From positions 1-41,220 of the forward strand of contig JAHJQG010000036.1 in the NCBI GenBank assembly GCA_018819345.1: a stretch of DNA of 41,220 nucleotides, given 5' to 3'. Numbering within the stretch: position 1 is the first letter of the stretch; the number at the start of each line of letters is the position of its first letter. Below, piece after piece: positions 36,156-41,220 of the stretch. The translations under genes were made by a program, and so were the position numbers. The notes beneath the pieces were generated by a model that was given only the letters and a program-made list of their open reading frames with translations, made no database searches and was not told the origin of the DNA. Source of the DNA: Nanobdellota archaeon. GTDB taxonomy: Archaea; Nanobdellota; Nanobdellia; Woesearchaeales; CG1-02-33-12.

Positions 36156-37304
36156 TCACTTTTTTTCTCTTCTTTCACTCAGAAAAATTATAACTGCCAG
36201 AATAATAATCCCCAGCAGTATATTGTATTTGTAGGAGATTATGAAGCCAATGATTTTAGCCAGAAAATTTGAATAATAGAAAAAAAATATTAATAAGACG
36301 CCAATTAAAACAAACATATACTTAAGGAATTTGTTCCTCTTATCGGTTTTTTTCAGGGCTTTTGGCTTTTTCTTTTTTTTCTTTGGTTTTTCTCTTTTTT
36401 CAAACCATTCCTCTTCAGACTCTTCTTCTGTGAAAAAGTCAATAATTGCATTCCAGATTCTTTTAAGGATTGCCTGTTTCTTTCTTTTTCTGGGCTTCTT
36501 CTTTTTCTTAATTTTTTTAGGCTTTCCCCCTTTAGGTTCCTCTATTTCTTCTGTAAAGAAATCAACTATCCCGTTCCAGGCGCTTTTTAATGCGCCTTTT
36601 TCTTTTCCCTGGATTTTTTCTATCTCACTAATCTTTTTTTTATCCTCTTTTCTTATTTCAGGATGTTTTTTCAGAAAGTCAATTATCCTCCTGAACCTTG
36701 AATCAAGCCTGTTTAGGTTTCTCTTAAAATAATTATTTTCAACTGAATTTTTTCTTACTGACTGGATTTCCTGCCTCAAGTCAGAGAGCTGTTTATTGAA
36801 GTATGATTTATCAATGAATCTTTTTTCCAGCTCATCAAGCTCTTTTTTCATGCTGCTGATGTCCTGCGCTCTTTTTTTAATTCTTGCATCAAACTTGTTT
36901 GCCTGCATCTTAAATTCATTCACATCAACAACAGTATTTTTTAGATCTTCAAATTCTTTTTTGATTCCATTGGCTTTTTCAAAGCTCTTAATCATAGAAT
37001 TAATTGATTTCTTCAGCTTTAATGCTTCTTTCAGCTCTTTTTTTAGCTTCTCTCTTTTTTTTATCTCCCTTAAGACCCAATTATGCTTTTCATTTAAGGA
37101 ATCTATTTCGCTTTGAAAGTCCTGGTTTTTAACAAAATCTTCCCTTATCTTAGAGAGTTTATTGTTTATATCCTGGACAAGATGCTCCTTTTCTTTGGTC
37201 AGGTTAATTATATCCCTTTTTACTGCAGAAAAAGATGATTTCAGGTTTTTATTTAAATTATAAAGCCTTATTTCTATATTTTCCTCTTTACCCCCAGAAA
37301 CCAT
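36156..37304 (-). CDS. Coiled-coil protein with repeated WNxIxDFFTEE motif and two C-terminal TM helices
   Basis: LKSSFSAVKRDI N-terminus; K/E-rich; BRE/TATA AAAAGTTTATATA at 37330-37342. Confidence 0.75.
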   Translation of the reverse strand: MVSGGKEENIEIRLYNLNKNLKSSFSAVKRDIINLTKEKEHLVQDINNKLSKIREDFVKNQDFQSEIDSLNEKHNWVLREIKKREKLKKELKEALKLKKSINSMIKSFEKANGIKKEFEDLKNTVVDVNEFKMQANKFDARIKKRAQDISSMKKELDELEKRFIDKSYFNKQLSDLRQEIQSVRKNSVENNYFKRNLNRLDSRFRRIIDFLKKHPEIRKEDKKKISEIEKIQGKEKGALKSAWNGIVDFFTEEIEEPKGGKPKKIKKKKKPRKRKKQAILKRIWNAIIDFFTEEESEEEWFEKREKPKKKKKKPKALKKTDKRNKFLKYMFVLIGVLLIFFFYYSNFLAKIIGFIISYKYNILLGIIILAVIIFLSERREKK

Positions 37305-37375
37305 TTTTAATTTTAAAGTAATAATTAACTATATAAACTTTTCGATAGTTAAAGGTCAATAGGGCTTTTTATTTT
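37108..37375. repeat. Left copy of split direct repeat (37108-37235 and 37344-37375)
   Basis: Matches 39600-39726 (about 10-11 differences in about 128 nt by eye) and 39727-39758 (31/32 identical). Confidence 0.92.
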
Positions 37376-37479
37376 ATAAAGAACACACCAGTCACCTCTC
37401 CTTTCAGTTGTTATAAAACTAGTTTGATTATGTTATTTTAATTTGTGATTTACTGTTGGCAACATATAGTTCTCTCCTC

Positions 37480-37677
37480 TCAATATAAATAAGATTTTGT
37501 ATAAATAAGATGTTGCCTAGGTTTTATTTTATTATAAAATTGAGACTTATCTTTCCCACAGTGAATTACTTTAAACTTTGAGTTCATTGTTTTGATTATT
37601 ATATCTGCACCTTCCTTATGTTTCTTGATCTCCATAATTTCACCCTCAACTATTCTTTCTATTTGACTTGGATCCAT
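37480..37677 (-). CDS. Small hypothetical protein
   Basis: 65-aa ORF with SD-like GGGAG upstream; no family recognised. Confidence 0.45.
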   Translation of the reverse strand: MDPSQIERIVEGEIMEIKKHKEGADIIIKTMNSKFKVIHCGKDKSQFYNKIKPRQHLIYTKSYLY

Positions 37678-37839
37678 TTTATTCTCCCAGCTGCGTTAGT
37701 AGTGCTGTATTTTCCTGTTGATAAAGGAACTATCATCTATTTAAATATTTTTCTATTTAGTAGTGGTAATTTTTATAATATACGGTTTTTAGTTTGATTA
37801 AATATAAAAACTTAGGAAATATTTTAGTGTTATTGATTC

Positions 37840-39114
37840 TCACGAATAAAAATAAGGAGTTATAGTCATATCTTTACTTGTACATCTCCGTTTTCCTGTT
37901 TTAATATAATGAAGAGGACACCCACCATAACATACTGGTAAATAATAACACTTCCGGCATTTTTCATCCTTGAAAGGATTTGATTTTTGATACCACCTTG
38001 CTATATGCATCGAATTTAGTTGCATATTGCCTGTTTTATCAATATAGCCAATATCCGCTGTTTCTGTCGACTCGTTTATACATTTCCATATTTTTAAATC
38101 AGGGGTAACATAAAAAAAATTAATTCCTCCATCTGATTCACAATATTGCAGATAATAAGCACTTTTAAGTATACTAAATCCATACTTATCTGCTTCATCA
38201 TAAAATTTTTTTAAATCAAAAATTGTATTACTATTAGATACATTGAAATGGCTAGTTGAATAGATTGGCCTAAAATATATATTTATTTTTTTTCTCTCGT
38301 CTTTATCAAACAAATTAAAAATCGACTTAACATCATCAAGACTTTGATTTAATAAATTTACTCGTAGTATAAACTGAATATTTGATTTTATTTTAATAGC
38401 ATATCGTACTGCTGTTGTAAAATTATTGACAATTGTGTCAAAGGTTTCACCATTATTATGTAATACACGAAGTTTATTGTGGGTTTCTTTACGACTGTCT
38501 AATGTAACTTGAATTGAAACACAATTATACTTTAATAATGCACTAACCATATCTTTATCTAATAAGAATCCATTTGTTACAATACTAGTACTTAACTCAT
38601 AACCATATTTTTTACTTTGTATTAATAGGTAATCTAGATAAGAAAAAATTTCATCTTTTTTTAAAAGAGGTTCTCCACCAAATAAACTAATATGTACTCT
38701 TTTTTTATTACAAAAATTTTTATTAGCAAACTTCTTTAAAACATCAAAATAGTTTTTAACTTCATTATTTTCTTTTCCGGGTCCTGCCTCAAAACAATAG
38801 GGACATTTAAAATTACATCGTAATGTTGGTACTAATGCAACAGTAATTTTATCTGTTTGGAAATAATTTGCATTATATAAGTATTCAAGAATTTCAATTT
38901 CATTGATATTATCTGATAAAATAAAACCATTTTTTATCAATATATCTTGGTATTTCTTATTTTTTCCTGTACATGGATCTTTTTTTCTTAATATAGCCTT
39001 TACTTTTCCTAACTCAGCTTTTTTGACCTTAATAGACGCCCTGCTAAATGAATTAAATAAAAAAATAGAATCTTTTTCCAAAAAAAAATTATTATACAGG
39101 CTGGCCTTATACAT
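37840..39114 (-). CDS. Radical SAM/SPASM peptide maturase with N-terminal RRE-like region
   Basis: CNFKCPYC, FGGEP, VTNG, QVTLD; SPASM C...IWKC...CRKCYYLPVCYGGCP...C; N-terminal SLYN..LFNSFS..LIKNGFI. Confidence 0.93.
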   Translation of the reverse strand: MYKASLYNNFFLEKDSIFLFNSFSRASIKVKKAELGKVKAILRKKDPCTGKNKKYQDILIKNGFILSDNINEIEILEYLYNANYFQTDKITVALVPTLRCNFKCPYCFEAGPGKENNEVKNYFDVLKKFANKNFCNKKRVHISLFGGEPLLKKDEIFSYLDYLLIQSKKYGYELSTSIVTNGFLLDKDMVSALLKYNCVSIQVTLDSRKETHNKLRVLHNNGETFDTIVNNFTTAVRYAIKIKSNIQFILRVNLLNQSLDDVKSIFNLFDKDERKKINIYFRPIYSTSHFNVSNSNTIFDLKKFYDEADKYGFSILKSAYYLQYCESDGGINFFYVTPDLKIWKCINESTETADIGYIDKTGNMQLNSMHIARWYQKSNPFKDEKCRKCYYLPVCYGGCPLHYIKTGKRRCTSKDMTITPYFYS

Positions 39115-39154
39115 ACTTCTCTCTCAATAATTTCCTTATATTCTTGATGGCAAA

Positions 39155-39193
39155 GTTGAAGTGAGTGAAAACTCACGCTTCCGCGTACTCAAC
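39155..39193 (-). promoter_or_regulatory. Structured intergenic RNA element between precursor and maturase
   Basis: Minus strand GUUGAG-U-ACGC(GGAA)GCGU-GAGU(UUUC)ACUC-AC-UUCAAC can form a three-way junction with a GNRA loop. Confidence 0.6.
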
Positions 39194-39218
39194 ACTACAT
39201 ACAAAGAGATTAAGAGTT

Positions 39219-39461
39219 TCAGTTACAAGAACCGTTTCCTGTACAGCCACAGGCGTCAAGCCCTAATCTTCGTGTTGGTGTAAGTTCAATTGTATCTGGT
39301 TTAACCACTGCTTCATTAATTACCTTCATAATTTCTTCCGGTTTCGTTTGTTCTGCGTATATTTGATCACCTGTATACACATCTTGTGTCTGGTATGCTC
39401 TGTCTTCTTTTTCCTTTCCTGGAACAGAACTTAACTTTTGTTCTAATGCTTGGCTTACCAT
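39219..39461 (-). CDS. Putative RiPP precursor peptide
   Basis: 80 aa; charged leader and C-terminal core DACGCTGNGSCN; SD GGGGGT; directly upstream of the rSAM/SPASM gene. Confidence 0.78.
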   Translation of the reverse strand: MVSQALEQKLSSVPGKEKEDRAYQTQDVYTGDQIYAEQTKPEEIMKVINEAVVKPDTIELTPTRRLGLDACGCTGNGSCN

Positions 39462-39520
39462 TTTATTTTACCCCCTATTTTTTCAGTTTAGTAATTAATA
39501 TTATACTAATAAACATTGAA

Positions 39521-39533
39521 ATATATAAACTTT
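39521..39533 (-). promoter_or_regulatory. Archaeal BRE/TATA promoter of the precursor-maturase operon
   Basis: AAAGTTTATATAT on the minus strand, same motif as other promoters in the window. Confidence 0.55.
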
Positions 39534-39599
39534 GTGTTGATTTTTCCGGATGATTTCCAAAACAATGATTTCTAATGGTTTTCTCATCCCTTTTCACAA

Positions 39600-39758
39600 T
39601 CGCTTTGAAAGTCCTGTCTTTTAACAGAATCTTCCCTTATTCTAGAGAGTTTATTGTTTATATCCTGAACAAAATGCTCTTTTTTTTGGTCAGGTTAATT
39701 ATATCCTTTTTTACTGCAGAAAAAGAGATAGTTAAATGTCAATAGGGCTTTTTATTTT
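39600..39758. repeat. Right copy of split direct repeat; includes the recombinase 3' end and a decayed fragment of the 36156..37304 gene
   Basis: See 37108-37375; the 108 nt at 37236-37343 are absent from this copy. Confidence 0.92.
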
Positions 39759-40550
39759 TTCCATGGCTGTTTTTGATACATGGGTGTATACCTGGGTTGT
39801 CTCAAGCCTTGAGTGGCCCAAAAGCCTTTGTATATACCTTATGTCAATGCCATGCTCAAGAAGATGTGTTGCAAAGCTGTGCCTCAGGCTGTGAGGTGTT
39901 ACTTTCTTTTTTATGCCTGCTTTTTCAGCTGCTTTTTTGACAATAAGCTCTACTGCCCTTAATGAGTATTTATTGTTCCTGTTTGTCTTGAAGATAATAT
40001 CTTTTTTCTCAATATCTAATGTTTTTAGGTTTTTCTTTAATTTTGGCGAGAGCATTACTATCCTGTCTTTGTTTCCCTTTGCAAGCTTTATATGGATTAT
40101 GTTCCTGTTAAAATCAATATCTTTCCATCTTAAATTAATTATCTCGCTTGCCCTCATCCCAGAAGCATACATCAGCAGCATAATTGTCCTGTGGCCGAAG
40201 TTCTTAGTGCAGATAATCATATTTTCAATTTCTTTTCTTGAAAGGATTACAGGGAGCTTTTTGTCCCTTTTCAGGTTTGGTGTTTTTTCAATAATCCTGT
40301 TTATTGATTTATCCTGTTTTGCCTTAATGGCCAGATAAAACTTGATTGCAAAACCAGCAACCCTTACTGTTTCCTTGCTTTTTCCCTTATCAATAAGATT
40401 CAGCAGGAATTCCCTTGGACCAAGGCCTGATTCAATAAACTTGCCAACATGAAACATGTAAGCGCTTATTGTCTTTTTAGAATAGCCTTTAAGCTTAAGC
40501 TCATCTAGCAATAATTCTTTCCAGTTAGCATCATACAGGGCCCTGTTCAT
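39732..40550 (-). CDS. Tyrosine recombinase (XerA/IntI-related, N-terminal SAM-like domain)
   Basis: YSKKTISAY; YASGMRASE (R), KGNKDR (K), HSLRHSFATHLLE (HxxR), LLGH, TTQVYTHV (Y); C-terminal KSPID; TATA-like AAAAGTTTATAA 40577-40588. Confidence 0.95.
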   Translation of the reverse strand: MNRALYDANWKELLLDELKLKGYSKKTISAYMFHVGKFIESGLGPREFLLNLIDKGKSKETVRVAGFAIKFYLAIKAKQDKSINRIIEKTPNLKRDKKLPVILSRKEIENMIICTKNFGHRTIMLLMYASGMRASEIINLRWKDIDFNRNIIHIKLAKGNKDRIVMLSPKLKKNLKTLDIEKKDIIFKTNRNNKYSLRAVELIVKKAAEKAGIKKKVTPHSLRHSFATHLLEHGIDIRYIQRLLGHSRLETTQVYTHVSKTAMEKIKSPIDI

Positions 40551-40627
40551 CGTAAAGAGGCCCCATCCTTCCTAACTTATAAACTTTTACCTCTTTTTTT
40601 CGGATTATTCCTCCTTAAACCGCAAAA

Positions 40628-41036
40628 TAACCCTGTTTAATAGGTGTTAAAAGAAATTTTTTGCCTCTTTTTGAAATAAAATATAGTCTGCTTCGCAGAG
40701 ATTTTATCAGGCAAAAAAACTCTCGATGAGCCTCTTCACTCCGTGATGAGTCTCTTCGAGCCTGAACAAGTTCAGGTCTCTTAACAAGAATTAAGATGTG
40801 AATTTATTATTTGCTCACGCAAATTTTTGCTTCGCAAAACCATAAATTCCCCCAAATTTCTCCATTTAATGTTCATCCATTGCTACGCAATACCCTAACC
40901 TGAGGGTTGCCTCCACCCATGAACTTAAATTCCAAAACTTCTCTTAATTCTTCAGTTAGTTTCAATAAAATTTGAGTTCTTTTTTTTAAAATGGGGGTCT
41001 GAGGTGCTTCGCACATATAGCCTCGACTTCGTCGAG
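40628..41036. other. ORF-less multi-hairpin region with attI-like site (40628-40654) and attC-like fold-back (40777-40961)
   Basis: Nested inverted repeats and at least six C(TNC)G mini-hairpins seen directly; the recombination-site function is inference. Confidence 0.55.
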
Positions 41037-41220
41037 AGATTTATTTTTTAAGAGGGGCTAATCTCTTTGATGTTTTTTTATTGGGCTGGGCACTTATTTG
41101 TTTTCAAATAATTCCAATTGGGCCTTATTTGGTTCTATATCTAAAACTGAACAATAAATTTTCATTCCTATTTTCTTACCTAATGTATCTATAATTAAAT
41201 CTAATGAACTATTGGTAATA

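Follow-up and report, generated by a model that had tools for sequence, protein, structure and literature searches.

The stretch of DNA analysed here (the window, 41,220 nucleotides) is the complete 41.2-kb contig C26 of a metagenome-assembled genome (G000) that comprises 895 kb in 72 contigs and is 87% complete. The host is a small groundwater archaeon with a genome of ~0.9 Mb; archaeal markers such as TFS and NMD3 are present in the assembly, and close relatives, also metagenome-assembled, carry the labels Woesearchaeota or Nanoarchaeota. On the minus strand, positions 39732–40550 encode a XerA-like tyrosine recombinase of 272 amino acids (Pfam Phage_integrase, 1.8e-44), which is the presumed recombinase of the cassettes described below.

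This recombinase scored 204.8 bits against the NCBIfam model XerA_Arch, under the cut-off of 220, and 184.4 bits against the integron integrase model TIGR02249 (cut-off 265), the latter match falling into two stretches. Its best relative in both structure and sequence was P. abyssi XerA (PDB 4a8e), to which it aligned in a single continuous match (E 1.6e-45). The match to IntI4 (PDB 2a3v) was broken into residues 18–177 and 198–270, with 20 residues of the recombinase opposite 65 of IntI4, indicating that the IntI-specific domain is absent; the lack of this insertion, already claimed in an earlier sequence-only reading of the window, thus held. Only two tyrosine recombinase genes were found in the genome, the second (C58:50021–50824) being 43% identical to the first and passing the XerA_Arch model with 261.1 bits against the cut-off of 220, which marks it as a bona fide XerA; a serine recombinase was looked for in the genome and none was found. 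Judged by these scores (204.8 versus 261.1 bits), the gene in the window is a paralogue of housekeeping XerA and not XerA itself, so that an enzyme grouping with housekeeping XerA, which the sequence-only reading had named as grounds for refutation, was not what we found. Matches to the recombinase with 56–86% identity occurred in 17 of 60 relatives, spread across several families, and at least 8 of these 17 also carry a second, XerA-like gene (41–45%). From profile scores, identities and this co-occurrence, without a phylogeny having been built, we infer that the recombinase belongs to a separate paralogous clade beside XerA.

Upstream of this divergent gene, on the plus strand, lies an attI-like docking site (40628–40649), TAACCCT-GTTTAAT-AGGTGTTA, the parts of which occupy 40628–40634, 40635–40641 and 40642–40649. 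Crossover is inferred in or next to the GTT at 40646–40648. From the G of this G|TT it is 96 nt to the start codon of the recombinase (40550), and the locus thus agrees with integrons in having an attI immediately 5' of the integrase gene and insertion at G|TT. DNA homology between the window and its orthologues spans the recombinase gene and the region upstream of it, with alignments ending at 40649–40665; in all orthologous loci with sufficient upstream sequence, the homology breaks at ...TTAATAnnn|GTT (40646) and unlike content follows. Junctions of the form ...GTTTAATAGGT|GTT, followed by differing sequence, are seen in the window and in G001, G009, G003, G012, L068, L069 and L073, and at least eight different continuations of attI|GTT were counted among the compared loci. 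In other families, the motif G/C-Y-TTAAT-N(3-5)-GTT (G/C-Y-TTAAT-N-GTTA-nnnn-CAAT) is found upstream of the orthologues, 118–199 nt from the recombinase start (G028, G024, G029, G020, G014, G017 and G010). Two locus types that seemed to be without the motif have it 0.7–1.3 kb away, with one or two genes in between. One or two genes (199 aa, 173 aa) stand between the recombinase start codon and an intact docking site in L071, L020 and L019/L159.

Breaks in assembly fall on the same trinucleotide. Four contigs from independent assemblies (L017, L070, L072 and L020) stop exactly at the GTT(A) of the docking site, as would be expected because assemblers break where a population holds several continuations. 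Among the Logan contigs of run X2, which belongs to a study other than that of the best-matching run, pieces begin or end at 40646, 40955 and 40958, and one record (X2 record 13) consists of exactly 40646–40958, preceded by 26 unlike letters. Assembly graphs of independent groundwater runs showed branch points at 40646 and at 40955–40958.

Immediately beyond the docking site lies a 309-nt unit (40647–40955, plus strand) in which the window's ORF list holds no ORF of 40 or more amino acids. Compared with loci that lack it, the unit is inserted with exact borders: in L073, G009 and L019, the docking site runs straight into B-type sequence (GTTAAATACAATAAAATTT...), which in the window comes after the 309-nt unit (40955). 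Homologous ORF-less units hold the first position in G001 and G012, the latter with two in tandem followed by GTTAGCCGAAATTTTC..., and L068 joins its docking site directly to GTTAGCCGAAATTTTC.... Within the 309-nt unit, the longest head/tail inverted repeat, private to this cassette, measures 10 nt (TTTTTTGCCT at 40657–40666, AGGCAAAAAA at 40709–40718). A small hairpin, CCTGAAC-AA-GTTCAGG (40761–40776), similar to one preceding most sites of the family, lies directly 5' of the R'' box TCTCTTAAC (40777–40785), and this box pairs at 8 of 9 positions with the start of its own cassette, GTTAAAAGA (40646–40654). Words resembling C/D boxes also occur in the unit (GATGAG at 40727, GTGATGA at 40745, CTGA at 40763), without a D' box or an Rfam match. 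ARAGORN detected no tRNA in the window, Rfam gave 0 matches in the window at gathering score, and an Rfam search of 39400–41220 at E values up to 10 returned chance-level matches only, the best being Phe_leader (E 0.38).

The unit ends in a long attC-like fold-back of 177 nt (40782–40958, plus strand), consisting of TAAC, an L'' arm, a structured interior of ~145 nt, an L' arm, a bulge CA and GTTA. The L'' arm AAGAATTAAGA (40786–40796) pairs with the L' arm TCTTAATTCTT (40942–40952), after which come CA and GTTA (40955–40958). Folded as DNA, a 185-nt stretch reached −25.2 kcal/mol on the plus strand (z −5.1) and −31.3 kcal/mol on the minus strand (z −7.0), and 0 of 200 shuffles were as good on either strand. 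The bare geometry of AAC, a stem of at least 10 and GTT was present 49 times in the genome versus 38 times in a shuffled genome, which is chance level in this AT-rich genome; the argument is accordingly based on the family of related sequences and on comparative evidence, and the generic AAC-stem-GTT scan was replaced by family-specific patterns after this result. A strict long-site pattern matched two places in the genome and none in the control. In a sample of 200 further genomes of the order, which included few relatives of the genus, it matched none, and the sequence details are therefore lineage-specific.

Among the long sites, structure is kept as sequence varies. Eleven different compensating pairs of L-box arms were found among them, for example AGCGATTAAGAG/CTCTTAATCGC, AGGGCTTAAAAG/CTTTTAAGCCC and AGGCATTAAACG/CGTTTAATGCC. 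An RNAalifold consensus of six long sites comprised a 17-pair terminal helix with double changes in 6 of its 17 pairs, and overall 26 of 49 pairs, interior helices included, carried double (compensatory) changes. Only the termini of the window's fold-back are common to the long site on contig C20, and its interior is without a second copy in the genome. The interior (40797–40941) is itself conserved across L149, L156, L157 and L069 (GCTATTTTGCCAAGCAAAATT, CCAAATTT, TGCCTCAG), and it looks nested at a short-site dyad (GGAATT|...|AATTCC); it could help the site to fold, carry a promoter or be a small element nested there.

Past the second G|TT, the next cassette begins with GTTAGTTTCAAT... and a 'B' element (40955–41093, plus strand) that holds hairpins at 41004–41014 and 41022–41036 as well as T-runs. 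The 'B' element (40955–41077; TTC-loop hairpins, T-runs) is 73–78% conserved in genomes of other families, where the neighbouring genes are unrelated; it may be a 3'-end module that mobile cassettes have in common. The cargo of this second cassette is the 3' end of a Y-family-polymerase-like gene on the minus strand (41094–41220), inside which the contig ends. The last 127 nt of the contig are 98% identical to C20:12030–12156, where the gene has a Pfam IMS match (2.4e-23), and the start of the second cassette, GTTAGTTTC, is complementary to the R'' box GAAACTAAC of the long site on C20. Taken together, this complementarity and this identity imply that C26 probably runs on into the array on C20.

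Fold-back units are also present near homologous recombinases elsewhere, both in G012, G003 and L069 and in other families (G028, G029, G014 and G020). In G003, the docking site is followed instead by a small ORF of ~68 codons with two CxxC pairs (read by eye) and then by a shorter fold-back, TATAAC-AGCGATTAAGAGA...TCTCTTAATCCT-ATAA-GTTATA. L069, a metagenome contig, carries two cassettes 3' of its docking site, each terminated by a long fold-back: the first, of 0.7 kb, holds a 144-aa gene, and the second, of 5.6 kb, holds Vsr, Dcm, restriction-enzyme-like and TIR-like genes. At the G052 locus, which has a B-type start, no clear 5' arm of a fold-back was found.

A fold-back with 11 + 4 bp inverted repeats beside a tyrosine recombinase gene could also be read as a fim-like inverton, a MITE, or a hairpin element moved by an IS200/605 Y1 transposase. 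In favour of such readings, the recombinase has weak NCBIfam matches to tyrosine-type DNA invertases (65 bits versus a cut-off of 221), and one Y1 transposase gene exists in the genome (C40:168–527). Against an inverton, however, no contig or joint in inverted orientation was seen in the contigs of four runs, which drop rare variants, and relatives vary in presence or absence and in tandem copies, not in orientation. A MITE is contradicted by the lack of a second copy of the interior in the genome and of a target duplication, and the Y1 gene is single and unlinked. We thus consider all three readings of the 177-bp segment highly improbable and retain that of a site terminating a cassette.

In the window's genome, the long fold-back is a minority form, and most sites are ~26–30 bp and dif-like. 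The site family follows the pattern nnnnnTAAC-AG-palindrome-GAT-GTTAnnnn(C)AAT, with short palindromes such as GAATTCC, CAATTGC and CGATCGC and usually with a small hairpin before it. An nhmmer profile built from the short sites gave 29 matches at E<0.01 in the genome. A loosely written regular expression gave too much noise (361 matches versus 226 in the control) and was tightened. The short-site pattern exceeded its control in the window's genome (23 versus 1) as well as in G008 (14 versus 1), G009 (9 versus 2) and G001 (7 versus 2). Clear single or paired short sites also occur in other families.

The sites form arrays in direct orientation, with nine sites on contig C18, six on C20 (five short and one long), four on C16, three on C66 and two on C67, and the cassettes between them measure 0.47–2.7 kb. 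The eight cassettes of C18 mostly have one ORF each, of 100–206 aa, with products that include two GNAT acetyltransferases, a MazE-like antitoxin, a HAD hydrolase, MazG and a JAB protein; the cargo of C20 comprises the Y-family-polymerase-like gene, a group II intron reverse transcriptase and a SET-domain protein, among others. In seven of the eight C18 cassettes, the ORFs run antisense to the TAAC-to-GTTA direction, that is, towards the recombinase side, and the same holds in L069 and in the window's second cassette. In the assembly, the recombinase is physically linked to the ORF-less unit only, and the larger arrays are found on separate contigs. Sequence from the start of C66 (minus strand) recurs at the right end of C18, C18 cassette 3 has a similar counterpart at one end of C20, and C26 matches C20 over its final 127 nt; the arrays on C18, C66, C20 and C26 are probably one region that was broken by the assembler at shared sites and cassettes. 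The reverse transcriptase/maturase gene on C20 (C20:7804–9123, L149; RVT_1 4.9e-37, GIIM 4.8e-20) stands beside the long site at C20:9686–9867, recalling the group IIC-attC introns of bacteria, which target attC hairpins.

We then compared the two ends of each cassette by matching the five bases after its start GTTA with the five bases before the TAAC of its own end. The mean for 19 cassettes was 3.26 paired bases out of 5, compared to 1.93 for other pairs (n=765) and 2.39 within a site, and the observed sum was reached in 0 of 20,000 permutations. Pairing with the own end was complete (5/5) in six cassettes, and only 0–2 of the 5 bases paired in 5 of the 19. A nine-base end match was also seen in other families (G029 9/9, G014 9/9, G020 8/9 and G028 9/9) and twice in L069 (9/9 each, versus 5 for adjacent sequence). 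Private head/tail inverted repeats of 9–17 nt occurred in 14 of 20 cassettes, compared to 20 of 380 non-self pairs (at least 9 nt). Cassette 2 of C18 (570 bp, GNAT) corresponds to the cassette of L069 nearest to its docking site, at 94.9% identity over 567 nt; the match stops at the sites, and the flanks are unrelated.

These comparisons bear on the possibility that the repeats are static intergenic elements (a terminator, an insulator or a REP-like repeat) or an ncRNA gene, with the variation reflecting ordinary intergenic divergence. In support of this alternative, the interior of the long site is conserved and structured, hairpins with TTC/GAA loops together with T-runs look like 3'-end signals, and C/D-box-like words lie at 40745 and 40763. 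However, Rfam gave no match at gathering score (best local E 0.38), entire units are present or absent with their borders at GTT, one cassette is 95% identical from border to border in another context, and neither end complementarity nor private inverted repeats would serve a terminator. A static element is therefore a very unlikely explanation, and we prefer mobile cassettes.

By comparison, the modules are shown to start at G|TTAnnnn(C)AAT and to end in nnnnnTAAC-AG-[palindrome, 7 to ~170 nt]-GAT-GTT; they are present, absent or reordered among close relatives with borders exactly at GTT, and the first module always abuts a conserved site ~100–190 nt upstream of a XerA-like recombinase gene. 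The 309-nt unit is in all likelihood one such cassette, without a gene. We conclude that this part of the window is probably where an integron-like platform of gene cassettes begins next to its recombinase gene, in a Woesearchaeales-type (DPANN) archaeon, recombination itself being inferred. No excision or recombination product was observed directly, and movement is inferred from comparison: in the Logan contigs of four runs, which drop rare variants, we found no joints, circle junction, empty-site contig or inverted joint.

Most of what the sequence-only reading had proposed was thereby supported. Its coordinates for the inverted repeat, for the G|TT at 40646 and for the fold-back were all correct to the base, the complementarity it claimed between GTTAAAAGA and TCTCTTAAC with one mismatch held (8/9), and both the similar fold-backs near homologous recombinases (G012, G003 and L069; G028, G029, G014 and G020) and the variable content exactly at G|TT 40646 in relatives, which it had suggested looking for, were found, synteny not being invariant. 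Its overall proposal of a non-canonical archaeal gene-capture platform with an ORF-less first cassette of ~309 bp stands with three corrections. The long fold-back on which it was built is the minority here, most sites being ~26–30 bp and dif-like. The integron rule it cited, that cassettes point away from intI, does not carry over, as the genes here mostly face the recombinase. The 'attI' has the look of being the first member of the same site family and not a separate kind of site.

We propose that the XerA-paralogue recombinase would bind the TAAC and GTTA boxes and cleave in or beside the GTT. Docking junctions always read GGT|GTTA and internal junctions GAT|GTTA, which would place the exchange 3' of that T. 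Recombination between two successive sites would free a cassette as a circle, which in turn would explain why the start of a cassette is complementary to its own end, and such circles would be re-inserted either at the docking site or elsewhere, at another site. The covarying half-sites of a long site are 70–170 nt apart and can be joined only by intrastrand pairing, so it is probably as a folded single strand or a cruciform that a long site reacts, like attC; recombination of a folded bottom strand is inferred from this covariation and by analogy to attC. Short sites may instead react as ordinary dif-like duplexes. Their centres vary between sites, however, which should block a classical Xer exchange of two strands. 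That this enzyme acts on these sites is inferred only from their adjacency and co-occurrence.

It is conceivable, given that the sites are dif-like, that the cassettes are real and are moved by the housekeeping XerA (C58:50021–50824), the paralogue having another role. There are precedents in IMEX elements and in the pdif modules of Acinetobacter, which exploit XerC/D. A short site can be parsed into two inverted arms of 11 bp with a centre of 6–8 bp between them, such as GAAACTAACAG and ATGTTAGTTTC, and the genome does encode a bona fide XerA (261 bits, above 220). Against this, the docking site adjoins the paralogue and not XerA in every orthologous locus that extends far enough upstream, and this holds in several families; the crossover is placed at a GTT within an 'arm' and not at the border of arm and spacer; the centres differ from site to site, which classical Xer exchange does not tolerate; and the sites are in direct orientation, unlike the alternating pdif modules. 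Movement by housekeeping XerA thus appears unlikely, and we favour the paralogue as the enzyme.

The system shares several features with integrons: a tyrosine recombinase gene with a docking site just upstream and borders at G|TT; direct-orientation arrays of small cassettes, mostly single-gene or geneless; cassette starts that pair with the ...AAC box of their own terminal imperfect palindrome, the structure of which is kept as its sequence varies; and a cargo of the kind usual in chromosomal integrons, with GNAT, toxin-antitoxin, MazG, HAD, JAB, SET and restriction-modification genes. It differs in its recombinase, which lacks the IntI-specific domain and is nearest to XerA, and in its sites. 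Canonical attC sites measure 57–141 nt and have the form R''(RYYYAAC)-L''...L'-R'(GTTRRRY), with an unpaired central spacer and extrahelical bases. The long sites here have the AAC and GTT boxes, the L-box stems and the covariation of that form, whereas site lengths are ~26–30 bp or 83–177 nt, the spacer is paired and the bulge has 2–4 nt. Furthermore, cassette genes here mostly face the recombinase, whereas integron ORFs point away from it, so that a common Pc promoter is absent, and some cassettes are multi-gene, reaching 5.6 kb (L069).

XerA/dif systems (PDB 4a8e, 5hxy) provide the nearest relative of the enzyme, XerA, and the short sites resemble dif in having 11-bp inverted arms around a short centre. 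In Thermococcales, a single dif of 11-6-11 was described that does not lie beside xerA (Cortez et al. 2010, PMC2958812), whereas ~30 sites per genome bound accessory gene modules here and a separate true XerA is present. IMEX and pdif modules likewise place discrete gene modules between dif-like sites and are presumably moved by Xer-type enzymes. They use the host's housekeeping XerC/D, and their sites alternate in orientation; here, by contrast, a dedicated paralogue has a site adjacent to it, and within an array every site points the same way.

HattCI and IntegronFinder have been used to find integrons in archaea, with IntI-specific domains and canonical attC sites (Ghaly et al. 2022, PMC9668308); integrons receive no more than a brief mention in a review of archaeal tyrosine recombinases from 2021 (PMC8371274). 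In the literature searched, we found only canonical integrons and XerA/dif and no XerA-type cassette system, although CALINs of Nanoarchaeota in the supplements of PMC9668308 might include long sites. We therefore regard integron-like cassette capture by a XerA-type recombinase, built from parts unlike those of the bacterial integron, as the likely nature of the system. A bolder reading, towards which we lean with reservation, is that DPANN archaea of this order hold a second, independently evolved kind of integron, in which the recombinase derives from XerA, has no IntI domain, and both captures and shuffles cassettes at TAAC...GTTA sites that form hairpins; cassettes with conserved 'B' and long-site modules would be exchanged between families, and the structured interior of the long sites (~150 nt) would be a functional module for single-strand folding or a separate small element nested at the short-site dyad.

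Integrons, the textbook case of rapid gene capture, were thought to depend on a specialised IntI and on its attC hairpins. The system described here follows that logic but relies on an ordinary XerA-type recombinase and much simpler sites, through a docking site, self-complementary ends and arrays of accessory and defence genes. If this is true, cassette capture arose more than once or predates IntI, and DPANN archaea have a concrete route for a large flux of accessory genes. The breaks of metagenome assemblies at these loci would be explained, and the system would be expected to escape standard integron finders, although none was run. It would also offer a minimal pair of recombinase and site with which the origin of single-strand hairpin recombination from Xer/dif becomes testable.

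Beside the recombinase gene, the region 37108–39758 holds a 2.4-kb insertion (37376–39599) with two minus-strand genes, one resembling a radical SAM/SPASM RiPP maturase (37840–39114; best NCBIfam match CefB-like, 186.7 bits, under the cut-off) and one for an 80-aa peptide with a Cys-rich tail (39219–39461). The insertion is flanked by direct repeats, 37108–37235/39600–39726 (90–96%) and 37344–37375/39727–39758 (97%), which duplicate the 5' part of a gene for a 382-aa coiled-coil protein and, of the recombinase gene, the 3' end. No sequence separates these two genes in G012, where they abut directly.
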